From positions 106-64,105 of the forward strand of contig SDNZ01000002.1 in NCBI GenBank assembly GCA_004524565.1: a stretch of 64,000 nt of DNA. The letters run 5' to 3'. This document shows, one piece after another, positions 1,194-24,055 of the stretch (the first letter of the stretch is position 1; each line of letters opens with the position of its first letter). Both the position numbers and the translations under genes were made by a program. The DNA comes from Candidatus Thorarchaeota archaeon (GTDB lineage Archaea > Asgardarchaeota > Thorarchaeia > Thorarchaeales > Thorarchaeaceae). Below the pieces are notes generated by a model. It searched no databases, was not told where the DNA came from, and worked only from the letters and a program-made list of their open reading frames with translations.

Positions 1194-1305
1194 CTTCCAA
1201 ACTCCTATAGTTCAATTCAGTGATTTTGTGTTATAGCGCTTTTCTCTATGCGCAAGGTAATCTAATATTCAATGGAAGACGGACTGTATACAACGGTGTT
1301 ATACT

Positions 1306-2892
1306 TTGCAGAGCCATGCAATCCAAGCCATCCTTATTACTGACAAAGGTGGAAGTCCTCGGTTCTACATGCAACTCGATCCAAAGGCACTCAATATGGA
1401 TCCAGTGATGGCGTCAAGCTTCTTCGCAGCCATTGATATGTTCTCCAAAGAAGTCTTTGATGAGAAACAACAGGTATGCTATGTGGATTATGGGACACGT
1501 CTATTCACATTGATTAATGGAGTAAAGACAAATCTGATTGCAGTAAGTATGCTACATCTAAGTCAGGAAGTTATAGAAATTCTGGACTCATTATTAGCAG
1601 AATTTGAACTTGATTGGCTTGAAGTCGTTGACCCATTCGAGTACAATTTTGATTCTTCATTTGTTGATGTATATTTAGAGTCTTTTGGAGAACGGGTTAT
1701 GGGCAGGTTGTCACTTACACTCCTAGCTGATTCATGGGTTCCGTATTTTACTATTCAACCCGAACGTATCAAATCTGTAGAGAGTATTCTCCTCAATTAT
1801 ATAAATGGCTCAAGCAGTGTGAAAGAGATAATTGAAGTGAGCAATTTATCAAGAAGGGAGGTTGCCTTAGATTTATCAAAACTCTGGGCTCATAGGGTCG
1901 TACGATTTCGAAATATGTTCAGCTTCAATGACTTCATGACCACTGGCACTCAATTCATTCGATATGTTCAAGCCACCTCAAATGAAACAAGAGACCTGCA
2001 GAATCTTCATCCTACAATGGCTGGAGTGATTCCACATTTAGCTGGATTGATTGATGGACGACGTACTGTTCGCGAAATACTAGCTGAGCTTGGGACGCGT
2101 CATGATGAAAGTGAATTACTTCGAGCATTGGACTATCTCATAGAAGTAGGAGTTATTCAAGCCCTCACACCAGAAAAAAGGAGAATCCTTCTTGTCAAAG
2201 AATCTCTTGAGCTGGCTGTTCGAGTAGCTGAAGGAACCTACAACAAAGCTGAAGCTACAAATGCGCTTCGCCATGTATTGAAGAAGACTAGTGCACCAGA
2301 AATTCTAAGTCAGTTGCAATTAAAGGAAGACAAGTGGGCAGTTGATTTTGATTTTAAGATACTCGAAGGTCTAGATAAACGACGGTTAATGCTACTATAC
2401 GGGGAATGGATGAAAGTCTTAGCACAATTTGTACAAGTATTGAACCCTTCAAGACTTGAACTCTTCATCAAGAATCTAACCACAGTATATGCTCAACGCA
2501 TTGTCAAACGATACTCCGCTATGGATTTGCGCGGCTTTGAGGAGTTCTCGTACTGGCTTGAAATTTTGAGCACTCCAACAAAACCACATGTTGGTGCTGT
2601 GCAAACGAGTCACCTCCACATAGCATGGTCAAATGCTATGGAAGAGCTAGCTTATCTTCTTGTGACAAGAGGTCATATTATTTACAAATCTGAGAGTATA
2701 ACTCAGATTCGCTCTGCATCTGGGACTCCCCTAATTGATCTTCTCCCTGAGGAATGGGTTGGTAGAGACCATGTCGAAACTTTTGAGCGTGTTATGGTTG
2801 AATACTCTAAACTCGGTCCTGCTGCTATACTGACTCTGCTCATCTTGGCAACACAACGAGCTATACTGTTACCACAGGAACTGATTATCTGA
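1306..2892 (+). CDS. Uncharacterised 528-aa protein with a longin/roadblock-like N-terminal domain and two winged-helix-like repeats; putative partner or regulator of the downstream small GTPase
   Basis: TTG start. The N-terminus AILITDKGGSPRFYMQLD...DPVMASSFFAAIDMFSKEVF...TNLIAVSM has the strand-helix pattern of longin/roadblock folds. Two internal repeats share the motif I(N/D)G..(S/T)V(K/R)EI...L..L: INGSSSVKEIIEVSNLSRREVALDLSKL and IDGRRTVREILAELGTRHDESELLRALDYLIEVGVI. The gene ends 78 nt before the GTPase gene on the same strand. The fold assignment is by eye only. Confidence 0.55.
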   Translation: MQSHAIQAILITDKGGSPRFYMQLDPKALNMDPVMASSFFAAIDMFSKEVFDEKQQVCYVDYGTRLFTLINGVKTNLIAVSMLHLSQEVIEILDSLLAEFELDWLEVVDPFEYNFDSSFVDVYLESFGERVMGRLSLTLLADSWVPYFTIQPERIKSVESILLNYINGSSSVKEIIEVSNLSRREVALDLSKLWAHRVVRFRNMFSFNDFMTTGTQFIRYVQATSNETRDLQNLHPTMAGVIPHLAGLIDGRRTVREILAELGTRHDESELLRALDYLIEVGVIQALTPEKRRILLVKESLELAVRVAEGTYNKAEATNALRHVLKKTSAPEILSQLQLKEDKWAVDFDFKILEGLDKRRLMLLYGEWMKVLAQFVQVLNPSRLELFIKNLTTVYAQRIVKRYSAMDLRGFEEFSYWLEILSTPTKPHVGAVQTSHLHIAWSNAMEELAYLLVTRGHIIYKSESITQIRSASGTPLIDLLPEEWVGRDHVETFERVMVEYSKLGPAAILTLLILATQRAILLPQELII

Positions 2893-2970
2893 TAGGAAAC
2901 TAATGGAACTTCCATCTCAAGAACTGTTATCTTGGATTTTGATATGCACACGTACGTAAGGTGATACTTT

Positions 2971-3483
2971 ATGCCAACCTATCTTCTCAAAATAGTCACA
3001 GTTGGAGCAGCTTCCGTCGGTAAGACCAGTATCATAATTCGATACTCATCTGGTACTTTCCGTGAACACTATTCACCAACCCTTGGTGTAGGTTTTGCAT
3101 ACAAGAAGATGGCTCTTGGCAAAGATAACGTGAACCTGCAAATTTGGGATTTAGGTTCTCAGGACTTTCTTGAGCGTACTCGTCAGAATTACTACTTGGG
3201 AGCTCAAGGTGCTATGTTCATGTATGATGTTACTTCTTGGGAATCATTCAATGACGTTATCGAATGGAAGAAAGAGGTCGATCGGAATTTGGATGATTAC
3301 CGTGCTATTTTAGTCGCTAACAAAGTTGATCTTGCGATGGATCGGGTCGTTTCTGCAGAGGAAGGACAACGGGTTGCTGACCAGATGGGCATTCCACATG
3401 TCGAAGTTTCAGTTAGACTTGATAAGAATGTAAATGATGCATTCGGAATGCTTGCCCAGAGCATAATTGATGCATTTAGCTAA
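2971..3483 (+). CDS. Small Ras-superfamily GTPase, Rab-like
   Basis: 170 aa. G1 is GAASVGKTS, switch I is YSPTLGVGF (Rab-like TIGxDF), G3 region is WDLGSQ (atypical versus DTAGQ), G4 is NKVD and G5-like is EVSVR. SD-like AAGGTGA sits 8 nt upstream of the ATG. There is no C-terminal Cys, so no CaaX or CC prenylation signal. Confidence 0.9.
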   Translation: MPTYLLKIVTVGAASVGKTSIIIRYSSGTFREHYSPTLGVGFAYKKMALGKDNVNLQIWDLGSQDFLERTRQNYYLGAQGAMFMYDVTSWESFNDVIEWKKEVDRNLDDYRAILVANKVDLAMDRVVSAEEGQRVADQMGIPHVEVSVRLDKNVNDAFGMLAQSIIDAFS

Positions 3484-3487
3484 ACAG

Positions 3488-4696
3488 TCAAAGGTAGAGA
3501 ACATCCTCAATTCCAGTTGTCAAGCGTTTAGCCTTTCCTTTGGTCACCGCATAGTCATTCTCGATTCGGACTCCACCTATCGATTCGAGGTAGACTCCAG
3601 GTTCGATTGCCATAACATTACCTTCAGCATAGAGATCTTGTCGGCTATAGGTACTTGGTAGTTCATGAACATCGAGGCCAATTCCATGACCGAGACCATG
3701 GGTCATTCCGTCTTTTGCATCAGGATTGAGCCTTCTTGAGTCAAATCCATGCTTCTTAAGAGTCTTGTAACATGCCATATTGACATCATCTATGATAGCA
3801 CCAGCTGTAAGCGCGTCAACTGTTGAATTAGCAGCATCCTCTACTGCTTCGAACATCTCACGGACTCTTTCTGGTACAGGACCCTTCACAAAGGTACGCG
3901 TCACATCAGCAATGTATCGTTCCTGTTTCAATCGTGGGAATACATCCATGATGATTGGAACCTCACTCTTGAGCTTGTCTTCAGCAACTCCGAGATAGTG
4001 CCAATCAAAGGCTCTCTCTCCAACAGCAAGAATCACATCCTCCGCAGACTCTGCACCTCTGTCTAAGAGGAAATGGTCAAGTGCGCTCTTTACCTTACCA
4101 ACGGTAAGAGGTTCGCCTCTATGCATCAGTACATTATTTGCACCGATATCGCTATCTTTGACCATCTCTATGATATGACTGATTGCATCTATGGTAGCAT
4201 CTCCTGCCTTTTTGATAATCCCAATCTCTTTTGCGGATTTTGTAGCACGTGCCTCTAATACAAGGTCTCTCACGACTTTGATTTCATATCCCATTTTCTG
4301 AAGCATGACCAAGTGGCTTGCAGGAAACTCATCTGGAACTCCCAGAATCTCTCCGGAGAATTGTTTCTTGAGGAGGTCCTCATAGTCTCTATCCTTATTA
4401 TCCCGGATTTTCTTATTCTCCCTTAGCAGCTGAAGATGAACTTCGGAAAGGTCATGAGTTTTCTTGATGAAACTCTCTTTCTTGACACGTTCAACTGCTA
4501 GGAACGATGAAGCAACGAGAGGTTCTTCTCCCTTGTTTTTCAGATAGGTTATTTGATCCGAGGATCGAAATCCCGTCAACCAGTATATGTTTGGGTTTTC
4601 GAATGCATTACCAAATGTCAGTAGTGCGTCAATTCCATATTGTTCCATAAGTGGATCGAGATTGTCATGCATTGAATTCGCCTTATTTTCGGACAC
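3488..4696 (-). CDS. M24-family Xaa-Pro aminopeptidase/dipeptidase
   Basis: 402 aa. Pita-bread metal-ligand region MTHGLGHGIGLDVHELP and ...AIEPGVY...GGVRIEND, with a creatinase-like N-terminal domain. Confidence 0.85.
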   Translation of the reverse strand: MSENKANSMHDNLDPLMEQYGIDALLTFGNAFENPNIYWLTGFRSSDQITYLKNKGEEPLVASSFLAVERVKKESFIKKTHDLSEVHLQLLRENKKIRDNKDRDYEDLLKKQFSGEILGVPDEFPASHLVMLQKMGYEIKVVRDLVLEARATKSAKEIGIIKKAGDATIDAISHIIEMVKDSDIGANNVLMHRGEPLTVGKVKSALDHFLLDRGAESAEDVILAVGERAFDWHYLGVAEDKLKSEVPIIMDVFPRLKQERYIADVTRTFVKGPVPERVREMFEAVEDAANSTVDALTAGAIIDDVNMACYKTLKKHGFDSRRLNPDAKDGMTHGLGHGIGLDVHELPSTYSRQDLYAEGNVMAIEPGVYLESIGGVRIENDYAVTKGKAKRLTTGIEDVLYL

Positions 4697-5716: not shown

Positions 5717-6031
5717 ATGTGTGTAACTTACCCGATTGAGTGTGGAAATTTGGCTCGAGTGTTAGTGAAGTTTTTTGCCACCGTCAGAGAAGCAACAGGA
5801 GTAAAGAATATCGAGATGGATGCAGATACTATTCGAGAACTACTTGATTCACTTCAAGAGACTTTTGGAGTGCGCTTCACACAGACAGTTATTAATACAG
5901 ATACTGGAAATTTGAAACAGTTTTTTTCATGTATGGTAAATGGAAAACGCATCGAGCTATTGGATGGTTATGATACCAAATTAGTGGATAACGATGCAGT
6001 GGCTCTATTTCCTCCAGTAGGGGGTGGATGA
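5717..6031 (+). CDS. MoaD/ThiS-type ubiquitin-fold small protein ending in a Gly-Gly(-Gly) tail
   Basis: The core VLVKFFATVREATGVK...ELLDSL...VNGKRI...DNDAVALFPPVGGG is classic MoaD/SAMP-like with a C-terminal GG. A TATA-like TTTTAATC at about 5704-5712 suggests the real start is internal (TTG 5750 or GTG 5759). The stop overlaps the next gene. Confidence 0.7.
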   Translation: MCVTYPIECGNLARVLVKFFATVREATGVKNIEMDADTIRELLDSLQETFGVRFTQTVINTDTGNLKQFFSCMVNGKRIELLDGYDTKLVDNDAVALFPPVGGG

Positions 6032-7442
6032 GATGAGTAGTTCCCTAACATCCAAACACCGTAGGCAGACTGATAGTGGTCGAGTTGATTTGGTAGTCAG
6101 AAATGCCCGTCTTCTTTTAGAATCTGGAATGGTCCATGGAGGAATTGGTGTAGCTAACGGTGTAATCTCAGTTATAGCTACAGATGAACATCTTCCAGAT
6201 GCAGAAATCGTGATTGATGCGCAAAATAAGATAGTGATGCCTGGGCTCATAGATGCTCATGCTCACATAGATGATCCCACGATGCAATCACATGAGAGTT
6301 TCTCTTCAGGGTCTCGTGCAGCTGCAGGTGGTGGTGTCACAACCTTCGTTGATATGCCCTTGACAAATCAGGTAGATACAGTCAAGATGGTTGATGAGAA
6401 AATAGCTACTGGTGAGTCCAACTCCGTTGTTGATTTCGCTTTCTATGCGGGGATGATGAACGCGTATAACATTTCCAATATCCCCTCTTTGGTTGAGCAC
6501 GGTGTGGCGGCATTCAAAGCCTTCACCTGTGAGCCGTATCAAGCAAATGCTGGAGTCATCACGAAATGTCTTAGTGAGGTTTCTGAGGTGGGTGGGCATA
6601 TCACAATACATTCTGAAGACCAGGGAATTATTGATGAGTTCAGGAAAGATCTGGACGGTGATTGGGACGCACCAATCAGCCATTCACTAGCACGACCTAA
6701 CATCGCTGAACAACTTGCTATCCGACAAAACATATCCATTGCATCTCAGACTGGAGGTCACTTGCACATTGCTCATGTAACAACTCATGAAGGTATGAAC
6801 GAGATAGAACGAGGGAAATCACGTGGAGTGATGGTTACTACTGAAGTCTGTCCTCATCATTTGGTATTCTATAGAGATGAGATGAATCGCTTAGGACCCA
6901 AGAGCAAGATGAATCCACCTCTACGATCCAAACAGGACAGAGCTGCATTATGGTCCGCTCTACTGCGGGGGATGATCGATATTACAGTTAGTGATCATGC
7001 TCCCTGTCCAATTGAGAAGAAGGACACTGGTAAAGATGACATAAGGGAAGCGTGGTCTGGCGTCGATGGAATTCAGATGATTCTTCGAGTCCTTCTCTCT
7101 GAAGGGATCAACAAGGGTCGATTATCCTTCTCCAAATTACTTCGAGTTAGTTCTAGAAATCCTGCAAAATTATTCGGGCTCTATCCAAAGAAGGGTGTGA
7201 TTAGAATTGGTTCAGATGCAGATTTTGTAATTGTTGACCCAACCAAAGAAGAGAAAATTAACGAGGATATGATGTTTTCAAAATGTGGGTGGACCCTTTA
7301 CGATGGGATGACGATGATAGGCGCTCCTCAAATGACCTTTGTACGTGGAGTGCAGGTCTACGGAGATGGTAAGATCCTGGCAAAACCTGGCCATGGTAAA
7401 TTCCAGGCTATGGGGAGTGGAAACAAACCTCTAGGAGATTGA
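6024..7442 (+). CDS. Cyclic amidohydrolase (dihydroorotase / allantoinase / hydantoinase family)
   Basis: 472 aa. Metal-ligand motifs in family order: LIDAHAHI (HxH), AFKAF (carbamylated Lys), HSED, IAHVTT, VSDHAP. Substrate specificity cannot be resolved by eye. Confidence 0.8.
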   Translation: MDEMSSSLTSKHRRQTDSGRVDLVVRNARLLLESGMVHGGIGVANGVISVIATDEHLPDAEIVIDAQNKIVMPGLIDAHAHIDDPTMQSHESFSSGSRAAAGGGVTTFVDMPLTNQVDTVKMVDEKIATGESNSVVDFAFYAGMMNAYNISNIPSLVEHGVAAFKAFTCEPYQANAGVITKCLSEVSEVGGHITIHSEDQGIIDEFRKDLDGDWDAPISHSLARPNIAEQLAIRQNISIASQTGGHLHIAHVTTHEGMNEIERGKSRGVMVTTEVCPHHLVFYRDEMNRLGPKSKMNPPLRSKQDRAALWSALLRGMIDITVSDHAPCPIEKKDTGKDDIREAWSGVDGIQMILRVLLSEGINKGRLSFSKLLRVSSRNPAKLFGLYPKKGVIRIGSDADFVIVDPTKEEKINEDMMFSKCGWTLYDGMTMIGAPQMTFVRGVQVYGDGKILAKPGHGKFQAMGSGNKPLGD

Positions 7443-7445
7443 AGC

Positions 7446-7934
7446 ATGACTGAACTCAAATTTGTATTTGGAGACCCCGATGTCTGCTCTGGTTGTATGG
7501 TCTGTGTGAATGTTTGTAGTATGTATTACTCCAAAGTGATTGGTCCTACACGATCAAGAGTCCGAGTAGTACGAATTGAACCTGCTCTTGATTTTCCTTT
7601 ATTCTGCAGAAATTGTGAGGACGCCCCATGTATCGCAGCATGTCCCGAAGGTGCCCTCAGTAGAACTTCCAAGGGAATAGTGATAGTGAATAATAGAAAG
7701 TGCAACGGTACTGGCGCATGTGTTGCCGCTTGTCCGTACAATGCAATACACATACACCCTGATACTGGAAAAGCTATCAAATGTATTCAATGCGGGCAGT
7801 GTGTTGATAGATGTCCCGCAGATGCACTCTTCATAACAACTACTGCTGAATTAGCTGAGCGTGATAAAGAGGGGAGAATGATGGCACTCCATAATGAGCA
7901 CGAAGATGAGCTCTATGAGAAGGAGGCTATGTAA
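7446..7934 (+). CDS. 4Fe-4S ferredoxin-domain protein (AOR-associated electron-transfer subunit)
   Basis: 162 aa with several Cys clusters: CSGCMVCVNVC, CRNCEDAPCIAACP, CNGTGACVAACP, CIQCGQCVDRCP. The start lies 4 nt after the upstream stop, and its stop shares a base with the AOR start (TAATG). Confidence 0.85.
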   Translation: MTELKFVFGDPDVCSGCMVCVNVCSMYYSKVIGPTRSRVRVVRIEPALDFPLFCRNCEDAPCIAACPEGALSRTSKGIVIVNNRKCNGTGACVAACPYNAIHIHPDTGKAIKCIQCGQCVDRCPADALFITTTAELAERDKEGRMMALHNEHEDELYEKEAM

Positions 7935-9799
7935 TGATAAGTGGTCTGGGTGGTGAGATTCTCTGGATTGATATGTCGAGAGGTAAAATCGAGAAGAAAA
8001 CCATTGATGAAGAACTAGTGAATAAATATCTCCTTGGAGCTGGATACCTTTCAAAAGTCCTGTATGATATGATACCTGCAGGAACAGATCCACTCGGTGA
8101 GAAGAATATCCTAGGAATTGCTACCGGTACACTCACTGGGTCAATGTTTCCCCAAGCTTCTAGACATGTAGTGGCTGCACTTTCACCTCTCACTGGAATT
8201 TGGGGTGAAAGCCACGCCGCAGGATTCTTTGGAGCTGAACTGAAATTAGCTGGCTATGATGCTATTATGTTCACAGGTGCATCAAAAGAGCCGCTCTATC
8301 TGAACATAGAAGACTCCAAAGTAGAGCTTCTTGATGCCTCACATTTGTGGGGAAAGGATGTATTTGAAACCGATGATATCATACGCAAAGGTCACAATCG
8401 AAAGTTCAGAACACTATCAATTGGACAGGCTGGAGAGAATCTGGTTAAATTTGCAGCAGTTATGAATGACCGAGATCGTGCGTCTGCTAGATCTGGATTA
8501 GGAGCAGTGATGGGTTCAAAGAAAATAAAGGCAATCTCTGTTCATGGAACTGGCAAGTTGGAAGTGGCGGACCCGAAGAACTACCTCAGACAAATGGACG
8601 TTTTCTATGAGCGAATGATGGCTAATCCCTTCACTCCCGGTCGAGTGAAGTATGGAACAACAAGTCTTGTTGAACTTATGCAGCACATTGGAAGACTACC
8701 AAGCTACAATATGAAGCAGGGTGTTTTTGAAGGATACGACAAGATTAGTGGCGATGCTATTAACGCGAAATACTTTGTAAAAGCACGAGCAGACTACTCC
8801 TGTCTCCAAAGGTGTGGTAGATACACAGCTGTGCGAAGTGGCCCATACAAGTTCATTGGTGGTGCACCAGAATTTGAAACACAGTCATCGATGGGCTCTC
8901 GATGTGGAAATGATAATCTGGAATCCGTTCTCTTTGGTCATCATCTAGCAAACCAGTATGGTATGGACACAATCTCATTAGGTGGAACTATATCCTGGGC
9001 TATGGAAGCGTGGGATGAGGGTCTCTTGACAGCTGAGGATACAGGTGGTATAGACCTAAGCTGGGGAAATGCTGATACCATCATTAAACTAACAAAGATG
9101 ATTGCACTGCGTGAAGGATTCGGAGATATCCTAGCTGAAGGTAGTGCTGCTGCTGCTGAAAGAATCGGTCGTGGTACTGACAAATTCGTTATGGCTGTGA
9201 AAAAACAGGAGATCGCAGGACAAGAGCCCAGAGCTCAGAAATCTATGGGTCTTGCAGCTGTAACTGCAGCTCGCGGAGCTGACCATCTCTACGCATTCCC
9301 TGTTCTCGATGAGGCGGGATTTGATGAAGATATAAAGAAACGTTTTGGAGAAGAATATCTGCCTGAGATGGCTGACCGTCTTAGTCCCAAGTACAAAGGG
9401 ATAATGGTCAAAGAGTGTGAAGATTTCATGGTCATGGTGGAGAGTGTAGGTCTCTGCAAGTATGGAACTCAGATACCACCCGAGTTCTATTATGATGATA
9501 TTGCACTCGCTCTGAAGGTACACAATGGATTGAACCTTACAGGAGTTCAACTCCAAGAGATTGGGGAGCGTATCGTAAATCTGAATCGTTTGTTCAATGC
9601 TCGATTCGGTGTATCTCGAAAAGATGATTGTCTTCCCGACCGTTTAACAAAAGAGAAGGCACCTCTGGGTCCATCTGCAGGTGAAGTAGTAGAACTTGAC
9701 CAGATGCTCACAGAGTACTATGATGTGCGAGGTTGGGATCAAGAGACTGGATTACCTCTAAAAGAAACTCTCAAACGACTCGGTTTAGATGGCTTATAG
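7934..9799 (+). CDS. aor: Aldehyde:ferredoxin oxidoreductase family (tungstopterin AOR-type)
   Basis: 621 aa. Family-typical N-terminus ILWIDMSRGKIEKKTIDEE...YLLGAGYLSK, an ...EPRAQKSMGL... region and the FeS/pterin region MVMVESVGLCKYG. Confidence 0.9.
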   Translation: MISGLGGEILWIDMSRGKIEKKTIDEELVNKYLLGAGYLSKVLYDMIPAGTDPLGEKNILGIATGTLTGSMFPQASRHVVAALSPLTGIWGESHAAGFFGAELKLAGYDAIMFTGASKEPLYLNIEDSKVELLDASHLWGKDVFETDDIIRKGHNRKFRTLSIGQAGENLVKFAAVMNDRDRASARSGLGAVMGSKKIKAISVHGTGKLEVADPKNYLRQMDVFYERMMANPFTPGRVKYGTTSLVELMQHIGRLPSYNMKQGVFEGYDKISGDAINAKYFVKARADYSCLQRCGRYTAVRSGPYKFIGGAPEFETQSSMGSRCGNDNLESVLFGHHLANQYGMDTISLGGTISWAMEAWDEGLLTAEDTGGIDLSWGNADTIIKLTKMIALREGFGDILAEGSAAAAERIGRGTDKFVMAVKKQEIAGQEPRAQKSMGLAAVTAARGADHLYAFPVLDEAGFDEDIKKRFGEEYLPEMADRLSPKYKGIMVKECEDFMVMVESVGLCKYGTQIPPEFYYDDIALALKVHNGLNLTGVQLQEIGERIVNLNRLFNARFGVSRKDDCLPDRLTKEKAPLGPSAGEVVELDQMLTEYYDVRGWDQETGLPLKETLKRLGLDGL

Positions 9800-23964: not shown

Positions 23965-24055
23965 TGGCGGCCTCCTAAGAGAATCGAACTCTCAACGCTT
24001 GCACGTTCACGGGTTTGAAGCCCGCGGAACCAGACCACCGGTCCTGTAGAAGGCC
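23965..24055 (-). tRNA. tRNA-Sec (anticodon UCA), archaeal/eukaryotic 9/4 fold, genomically encoded CCA
   Basis: Minus-strand sequence GGCCTTCTA-CA-GGACCGG-TGGT-CTGGTTC-CGCGGG-CTTCAAA-CCCGTG-AACGT-GCAA-GCGTT-G-AGAG-TTCGATT-CTCT-TAGGAGGCC-G-CCA. It has a 9-bp acceptor stem, a 7-bp D-stem with a 4-nt loop, a 6-bp anticodon stem, a loop with U33-UCA-A37, a long variable arm with a GCAA loop, and a 4-bp T-stem with a TTCGATT loop. Folded by hand. Confidence 0.9.

Follow-up and report, generated by a model that had tools for sequence, protein, structure and literature searches.

Two adjacent genes near the start of the window, by which we mean the whole 64,000-nucleotide stretch of Candidatus Thorarchaeota DNA analysed here (contig SDNZ01000002.1), probably make up a Thorarchaeota GTPase switch module that is complete in itself. 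The module pairs an NPRL2/NPRL3-like regulator with a dedicated Rab-like small GTPase, and its mechanism is one that we infer. The two genes are:

1306..2892, + strand: NPRL2/NPRL3-like protein gene (528 amino acids, long fused type), from the list of open reading frames (ORFs), TTG start
2971..3483, + strand: Rab-like small GTPase gene (170 amino acids, type A), from the ORF list, ATG start

An earlier, sequence-only reading of this stretch had singled out the same two ORFs, of 528 and 170 amino acids on one strand with 78 nucleotides between them, and they were found as it gave them; the intergenic spacer runs from 2893 to 2970. The peptides that it quoted were also located, AILITDKGGSPRFYM...SSFFAAIDMFSKEVF at amino acids 8-51 of the large ORF and YSPTLGVGF at amino acids 34-42 of the small one. 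Its proposal that a protein with longin and winged-helix domains and a GTPase together make up a GTPase-regulator module gained support from the longin fold, from the co-conservation of the two genes and from the resemblance of the large protein to NPRL2/3.

Domain anatomy and distribution of the large protein

An AlphaFold2 model of the 528-amino-acid protein, built on a 44-sequence alignment, had a predicted local distance difference test (pLDDT) score of 78.9 and a predicted template modelling (pTM) score of 0.69. The following parts were distinguished:

1306..1620, + strand: longin domain (amino acids 1-105), beta-beta-alpha-beta-beta-beta-alpha at amino acids 6-104 by DSSP of the AlphaFold2 model
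1351..1362, + strand: beta1-beta2 loop residues G16-S17-P18-R19, 'G-x-P' with a basic residue after it, from the family alignment
1777..1947, + strand: winged helix 1 (amino acids ~158-214), motif 'INGS..VKEI', from AlphaFold2; the domain taken by itself matches Pfam HTH_NPRL3 at 5e-4
2011..2169, + strand: winged helix 2 (amino acids ~236-288), motif 'IDGRRTVREI', from AlphaFold2; an internal repeat of winged helix 1
2170..2580, + strand: helical domain (amino acids 289-425), from AlphaFold2; no Pfam match
2623..2889, + strand: C-terminal module (amino acids ~440-528), fused here; a small helical module, amino acids 444-528 in the model

The longin/roadblock-like fold previously suggested for the N-terminus was borne out as a longin by the topology of the model. 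A roadblock fold was rejected on topology as there is no N-terminal helix: the domain was assigned as a longin because strand beta-1 starts at residue 6 and because the Pfam MAPKK1_Int match (0.0078) aligns only from profile position 16. Domain-level Foldseek matches were to LAMTOR/MP1 (Ragulator), MglB and zeta-COP. In the loop between the first two strands, P18 was conserved in at least 90% of the family and residue 19 was R/K in every long-type protein and L/Q in the short type (the two types are described below).

The two winged-helix-like repeats that had been noted in the middle of the ORF were likewise present in the model, and both carry the motif I[ND]G..[ST]V.EI. A pair of winged helices could point to a transcription factor whose DNA binding would be gated by the GTPase, in parallel with the actinobacterial conservon, and distant relatives of the protein matched TrmB (7 members), HTH_47 (5) and DUF742 (1). 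However, the protein as a whole has an acidic isoelectric point (pI) of 5.5. Its first winged helix, with 7 basic and 6 acidic residues, is close to neutral (pI 8.5), and the second lies on the acidic side (pI 5.1). The homologous winged helices of NPRL2/3 are, moreover, protein-protein modules, and we consider a DNA-binding role highly improbable.

The C-terminal half is separated into its two parts by a linker (amino acids ~431-440) of low confidence in the AlphaFold2 model. When amino acids 289-528 were modelled alone the prediction was confident (pLDDT 81.8, pTM 0.80), and Foldseek against the PDB returned no structural relative for this segment (best E 1.5). The C-terminal module itself had neither a Pfam match nor a structural relative. 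In paralogous operons it is encoded by a separate gene for ~103-118 amino acids which overlaps the stop codon of the core gene; examples of such stand-alone ORFs are L052:7266-7601 and L072:7256-7567. Stand-alone representatives recovered by the profile search were ~80-140 amino acids long, mostly ~100-118, and matched profile positions 438-525. The fused and separate states of the module are read here as a gene fusion or fission event.

A search of 5.8 billion clusters with the 528-amino-acid protein found 148 relatives, nearly all from metagenome-assembled genomes (MAGs) of Thorarchaeota and a few from MAGs labelled Promethearchaeota. All of them were annotated 'hypothetical' and none had a Pfam domain; the best homologue, encoded in a MAG of Candidatus Thorarchaeota, was 93% identical. 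When 1.84 billion representatives were searched exhaustively with the family profile, only 133 clusters came up, and the family is small and essentially restricted to Asgard archaea. The single-sequence search gave no PDB match, and its Pfam and NCBIfam matches were all sub-threshold. The profile search of the 1.84 billion representatives revealed no sequence bridge to eukaryotic NPRL2/3, the distant matches being archaeal proteins with longin and winged-helix domains.

Resemblance to NPRL2 and NPRL3

NPRL2 and NPRL3 (Npr2 and Npr3 in yeast) are the GATOR1/SEACIT subunits that act as a GTPase-activating protein (GAP) for RagA/Gtr1; in GATOR1 the two paralogs form a heterodimer to which DEPDC5 is bound. 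Comparison of the full model with the PDB by Foldseek showed that the 11 best matches were all chains of GATOR1 or yeast SEACIT complexes (8adl_S, 9o5a_H/C, 9o5d_D, 9h4q_T, 9v0j_A/B, 7t3a_B/C, 8fw5_C and 7t3b_C), with E values of 7e-6 to 7e-4 over 346-501 aligned columns. The Foldseek output names complexes rather than subunits, and the chain lengths fit NPRL2 and NPRL3. The TM-scores of these matches were low (0.20-0.29) because the domain orientations differ. After them Foldseek listed Ragulator, MglB and zeta-COP, which matched the N-terminal domain only.

Profile comparisons pointed to the same proteins. Human NPRL2 was the best PDB sequence match of the family profile (E 0.0027), amino acids 143-229 aligning with NPRL2 174-265. 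An hhalign comparison of the family with a vertebrate NPRL2 alignment paired amino acids 144-273 with NPRL2 173-315 (probability 70%, E 4e-5); this match spans both winged helices over 129 columns and gives moderate, not strong, support. Pfam HTH_NPRL3 was the commonest family match, although always sub-threshold (7/44 members, best 2.4e-4). Scores were under the curated Pfam cut-offs for HTH_NPRL3 (16.3-20.4 bits against 27.2) and NPR2 (12 bits against 27.5), and Pfam NPR3 did not match the large protein.

Longin and roadblock proteins that partner eukaryotic GTPases include Mon1-Ccz1, TRAPP, FLCN/FNIP, NPRL2/3 and Ragulator, and in bacteria MglB is the GAP of MglA. NPRL2/3 was among the analogues that the sequence-only reading had named, and it is to this pair that the 11 best structural matches and the best profile match lead. 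At the level of the family, the modelled protein shows a resemblance to NPRL2/NPRL3 in its build.

The GTPase and its switch II signature

The smaller gene encodes, as had been proposed, a GTPase of the Ras superfamily with a Rab-type switch I. Pfam Ras matched it at 3.7e-44, compared to 0.025 for Gtr1_RagA. Among solved structures its best relatives were Rabs, with Rab1A first and Rab3 and Rab35 in the same range (5e-34 to 1e-31); 7ezb, a Thorarchaeota Rab of known structure, matched at 1e-31. Its motifs are:

3004..3030, + strand: P-loop G12-AASVGKTS-20; G12, G17, K18, T19 and S20 invariant in the family alignment
3070..3096, + strand: switch I YSPTLGVGF; T37 invariant
3145..3171, + strand: switch II WDLGSQDFL (amino acids 59-67); serine in place of the canonical DxxG glycine, catalytic Gln64 kept
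3319..3330, + strand: G4 motif NKVD; N117, K118 and D120 invariant

The motifs G1-G5 were conserved (GxxxxGKT, T37, D60, Q64, NKxD and SV[KR]), the DxxG serine being the sole deviation. WD[LM]GSQ was present in 64 of the 65 linked GTPases of the genome loci and also in 47 metagenome loci, whereas unlinked Ras-like neighbours had WDLAGQ, WDLSGQ or WDxGGQ. Practically every GTPase that is linked to the NPRL2-like gene is marked by this switch II, WD[LM]GSQD. Mutants of Ras G60 give the basis for expecting the serine-for-glycine exchange to affect switch II, the rearrangement of which it may constrain.

The family alignment showed that the GTPase lacks an MglA-style intrinsic arginine beside the switch I T37. 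The C-termini of the GTPases (for example ...IIDAFS) had no cysteine motif for prenylation; the solved Thorarchaeota Rab has likewise been reported to lack a C-terminal cysteine motif (PMC10933270).

Linkage and co-duplication of the two genes

The forward analysis covered 79 genome loci, of which 66 were informative in that they reached the C-terminal module and had at least 700 nucleotides of unmasked downstream DNA. A GTPase with the switch II signature lay no more than 250 nucleotides downstream on the same strand in 59 of these 66 loci; in three it was 1.4-3.6 kb away, behind an inserted gene, and in four there was none. In the reverse analysis, metagenome contigs were searched from the GTPase, which gave 47 loci with the GSQ signature, 38 of them with at least 600 nucleotides upstream. 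The NPRL-like gene was directly upstream of 36/38 signature GTPases, compared to 1/30 Ras-like GTPases without the signature. Chance adjacency was rejected on these two-way counts, and the co-conservation of the two genes, implied when the pair was first described, held from either side.

Three of the four loci without a GTPase (L018, L046 and L057) encoded a third paralog, ~60% identical to the window protein, to which L041 and perhaps L017 also belong. The third paralog is followed by a class-V aminotransferase gene on the opposite strand, and a GTPase-linked copy co-occurs in the same genomes. L017 was considered as a counter-example to the linkage and set aside as uninformative, a masked run of N lying directly downstream.

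The GTPase-linked loci fell into two types. In the long type the protein is fused (~526 amino acids), its residue 19 is R/K, and the GTPase, of type A, has the switch I TLG[TV]GF. In the short type a core of ~420 amino acids is accompanied by a C-terminal module of ~105 amino acids with a gene of its own, residue 19 is non-basic, and the GTPase, of type B, has TLGADF. The paralog class of the large protein was concordant with the class of the GTPase in 87/87 loci, and long and short paralogs were both present in at least 13 genomes. Judged from these sequences, the module is one that has been duplicated as a unit.

It is conceivable, if unlikely, that the two co-duplicated modules together are a prokaryotic forerunner of GATOR1-Rag. 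One module would consist of the long NPRL-like protein and the GTPase of type A, and the other of the short NPRL-like protein with its separate C-terminal module and the GTPase of type B. The NPRL-like paralogs would heterodimerise via their longin domains in the manner of NPRL2/NPRL3 and control the paralogous pair of GTPases, which the serine in switch II would make strictly partner-dependent. If true, an NPRL2/3-type heterodimeric regulator would have existed in archaea before Rag GTPases gained their roadblock domains.

Some short-type operons contained an unrelated large ORF between the C-terminal module and the GTPase (L055:7702-8964, L066:1856-4426 and L119-L122). The inserted ORF opens with a hydrophobic, signal-like segment, and the GTPase is displaced by 1.4-3.6 kb. 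At L045:7655-8509, in a MAG labelled Promethearchaeota, the NPRL2-like gene is separated from the GTPase by a 285-amino-acid ORF, which is similar only to the helical part (amino acids ~290-425) of the NPRL2-like protein and is therefore a partial duplication.

Two further loci, labelled Heimdallarchaeota (L075:5980-8305 and L077:6001-8302), had in a row an NPRL2-like core of ~420 amino acids, a 256-amino-acid ODP-family protein and the C-terminal module, with starts and stops that overlap. The ODP-family protein has a metallo-beta-lactamase fold and is a di-iron sensor (Pfam ODP 2.4e-50). At these loci the sensor protein appears to replace the GTPase.

These Heimdallarchaeota-labelled contigs, with the same core and C-terminal module flanking a di-iron sensor and no GTPase, would suit an effector or scaffold. 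The GTPase would then be the input switch, and the NPRL2-like core with the C-terminal module an adaptor passing the signal on. The fusion of NPRL2-like longin domains to two-component signalling domains, described in the text of Liu et al. (bioRxiv 10.1101/2020.10.19.343400), fits such a role. So does the large C-terminal half, a possible output domain whose fold matches none known. Nevertheless, the neighbourhood held no conserved downstream partner, and to our knowledge every characterised similar longin/roadblock partner of a small GTPase (NPRL2/3, MglB, Ragulator) alters its nucleotide state; an effector or scaffold was considered quite unlikely.

Proposed mechanism and direction of action

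In the favoured reading, a cognate regulator-GTPase switch, the two proteins would bind each other, with the longin domain, probably as a dimer platform, seated on the GTPase's switch regions. This docking is modelled on NPRL2-NPRL3, FLCN-FNIP, MglB and Ragulator and would determine which nucleotide state the GTPase is in. Assembly or output would be the task of the winged helices and the C-terminal half. In a rough division, the regulator is most likely a GAP, although at somewhat less than an even chance; a guanine nucleotide exchange factor (GEF) is distinctly less likely, and the remainder goes to an effector or scaffold.

A GAP is favoured because the architecture is NPRL2-like, because G16-x-P18 is conserved at the site of the GP motif of GAP-type longins and because R/K follows the G-x-P in every long-type protein. 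It is also favoured because Gln64 is retained in the GTPase and no intrinsic arginine stands beside T37. A GP motif where the beta1-beta2 loop ends has been proposed as a hallmark of GAP-type longins (FLCN, NPRL2, SMCR8 and C9orf72; PMC12290439). Relative to that motif, the G16-x-P18 of the large protein has one extra residue between G and P.

Several observations weigh against the cognate switch or against its GAP direction. The third paralog of L018, L046 and L057 and the loci labelled Heimdallarchaeota have no adjacent GTPase. The longin domain showed no sequence similarity to the NPRL2 longin in hhalign (probability 0.2%), and the link to NPRL2 therefore rests on the fold and the winged helices. 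NPRL2 has its catalytic arginine finger, Arg78, in the longin domain, and secondary-structure mapping would place it in the beta4-beta5 loop. By the same mapping, the corresponding loop of the large protein (amino acids 71-75) has no conserved arginine. The family alignments revealed no arginine that is invariant across both paralog classes: short-type paralogs lack R19, and R65 is histidine in 13 long-type loci. With no arginine conserved at the NPRL2 finger site as mapped, GEF or effector roles keep some probability. Finally, the partner is Rab-like and not Rag-like by its Pfam Ras match, and eukaryotic longin platforms that act on Rabs are mostly GEFs.

That last point, with the Rab-like partner and the missing invariant finger, is also what speaks for a GEF, in which a longin platform comparable to those of Mon1-Ccz1, TRAPP or DENN would prise the nucleotide pocket open and load GTP. 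Distant relatives of the family also matched Fuz_longin_1 (2.7e-5) and Sybindin (6.7e-6). However, the whole-protein structural matches were to NPRL2/3 and not to Mon1/Ccz1 or TRAPP subunits, the model has a single longin domain rather than three, and the G-x-P loop motif is reported to be missing from non-GAP longins (PMC12290439). On balance we hold a GEF to be somewhat unlikely, and return to the module as a cognate switch of which GAP activity is the most likely direction.

Comparison with known systems

Like NPRL2/3 of GATOR1, the large protein has an N-terminal longin followed by winged helices, carries a G-(x)-P motif in the beta1-beta2 loop and has two paralogs in one genome. It differs in several respects. 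The partner is a 170-amino-acid Rab-like GTPase with an NKxD G4 motif and without the C-terminal roadblock domain of Rags. At the position of NPRL2 Arg78 there is no conserved arginine, as far as secondary-structure mapping can place it, the longins not being alignable in sequence. The protein has ~240 extra C-terminal residues in an unmatched helical fold and falls under the Pfam cut-offs for NPR2, NPR3 and HTH_NPRL3. Its gene and that of its partner are adjacent and operon-encoded, co-transcription being presumed.

The coupling of a roadblock/longin-superfamily protein to a small GTPase in a prokaryotic operon is shared with MglB-MglA, and MglB is a structural match at the domain level. The actinobacterial conservon encodes CvnB (roadblock), CvnC (DUF742 winged helix) and CvnD (GTPase), and here too a winged-helix protein stands in an operon with a member of the roadblock/longin superfamily and a GTPase. 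In contrast to both, the topology is that of a longin without an N-terminal helix, and longin and winged helices are fused in one protein. The GTPase, unlike MglA, is Rab-like and has no intrinsic arginine. The tri-longin Rab GEFs (Mon1-Ccz1, Fuzzy-Inturned and Hps1-Hps4) have three consecutive longin domains, compared to one here.

A longin with a conserved Gly/Pro motif before beta-2 is also found in FLCN-FNIP, C9orf72-SMCR8 and the Asgard longins of FLCN/SMCR8 type (PMC12290439). Unlike FLCN-FNIP and C9orf72-SMCR8, the protein has no DENN domain, has G-x-P rather than GP and has no conserved arginine finger. An Asgard operon of a LAMTOR1-like roadblock protein, a Rab-like GTPase and a DENN protein, found in most Asgard lineages, is described in the text of Liu et al. 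(bioRxiv 10.1101/2020.10.19.343400). Both operons join a Rab-like GTPase with eukaryote-type regulators of the mTORC1 branch, but the regulator here is NPRL2-like and the module is essentially confined to Thorarchaeota.

Locus and surroundings

Each gene of the pair is preceded by a putative ribosome-binding motif:

1295..1298, + strand: GGTG, Shine-Dalgarno-like, 7 nucleotides 5' of the TTG start, read off the sequence; function presumed
2960..2964, + strand: GGTGA, Shine-Dalgarno-like, 6 nucleotides 5' of the GTPase ATG, read off the sequence

The TTG start of the large gene is supported because 44 homologues that begin there share the conserved residues 4-21, strand beta-1 among them, and because GGTG sits 7 nucleotides upstream. 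The GTPase start was preceded at 5-9 nucleotides by a GGTGA/GGTG-like motif in the window and in most ortholog loci (AGGAGG in one locus). The GGTGA fits a gene internal to an operon, and the two genes are presumably co-transcribed.

Upstream of the pair is a GNAT acetyltransferase gene (768-1193) on the opposite strand, and downstream, also on the opposite strand, are genes for an M24 peptidase (3488-4696) and then a PfkB kinase. The pair is regarded as a stand-alone two-gene unit because both flanks are unrelated metabolic genes on the opposite strand.

Elsewhere in the window, a same-strand cluster (5717-9799, + strand) encodes a ThiS-like protein, an amidohydrolase, a 4Fe-4S ferredoxin and an aldehyde:ferredoxin oxidoreductase. 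Two of its junctions overlap or abut, those between the ThiS-like protein and the amidohydrolase and between the ferredoxin and the oxidoreductase. ARAGORN predicted a tRNA-Sec (anticodon TCA) at 23965-24055 on the - strand, the sole tRNA found in the 64-kb window. Between 52000 and 62000 the + strand had a sustained purine bias (GC skew ~0.16, AT skew 0.16-0.28), unusual relative to the rest of the window, and the ORFs listed there were all short (250-304 amino acids).

Relation to published work and biological meaning

The protein family has already been reported, as 'NPRL2-like', in most Thorarchaeota MAGs in the main text of Liu et al. (bioRxiv 10.1101/2020.10.19.343400; Nature 2021). Architecture and distribution of the large protein match that family as it is described there. 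In the searchable literature and the main text of Liu et al. (supplements and Figure 5c apart), no description was found of a dedicated GTPase partner or operon, of co-duplicated modules, of a split or fused C-terminal module or of the switch II signature. At the level of the protein family the finding is not new, as the family and its resemblance to NPRL2 are published.

Asgard genomes encode dozens of small GTPases and of longin/roadblock proteins. In MK-D1, GTPase and regulator genes are generally not in operons, so that cognate pairs cannot be read from the genome (Tran et al. 2024). Because, as the same authors note, Asgard GTPases do not as a rule share an operon with their regulators, the pair described here is useful as a test case. 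Its near one-to-one pairing has outlasted a duplication of the module as a whole, which leaves two defined, soluble pairs that can go straight into biochemical work. These could show if a longin protein of the archaeal NPRL2-like kind acts as a GAP or as a GEF, and could test whether the longin-GAP mechanism of GATOR1, folliculin and C9orf72-SMCR8 predates eukaryotes.

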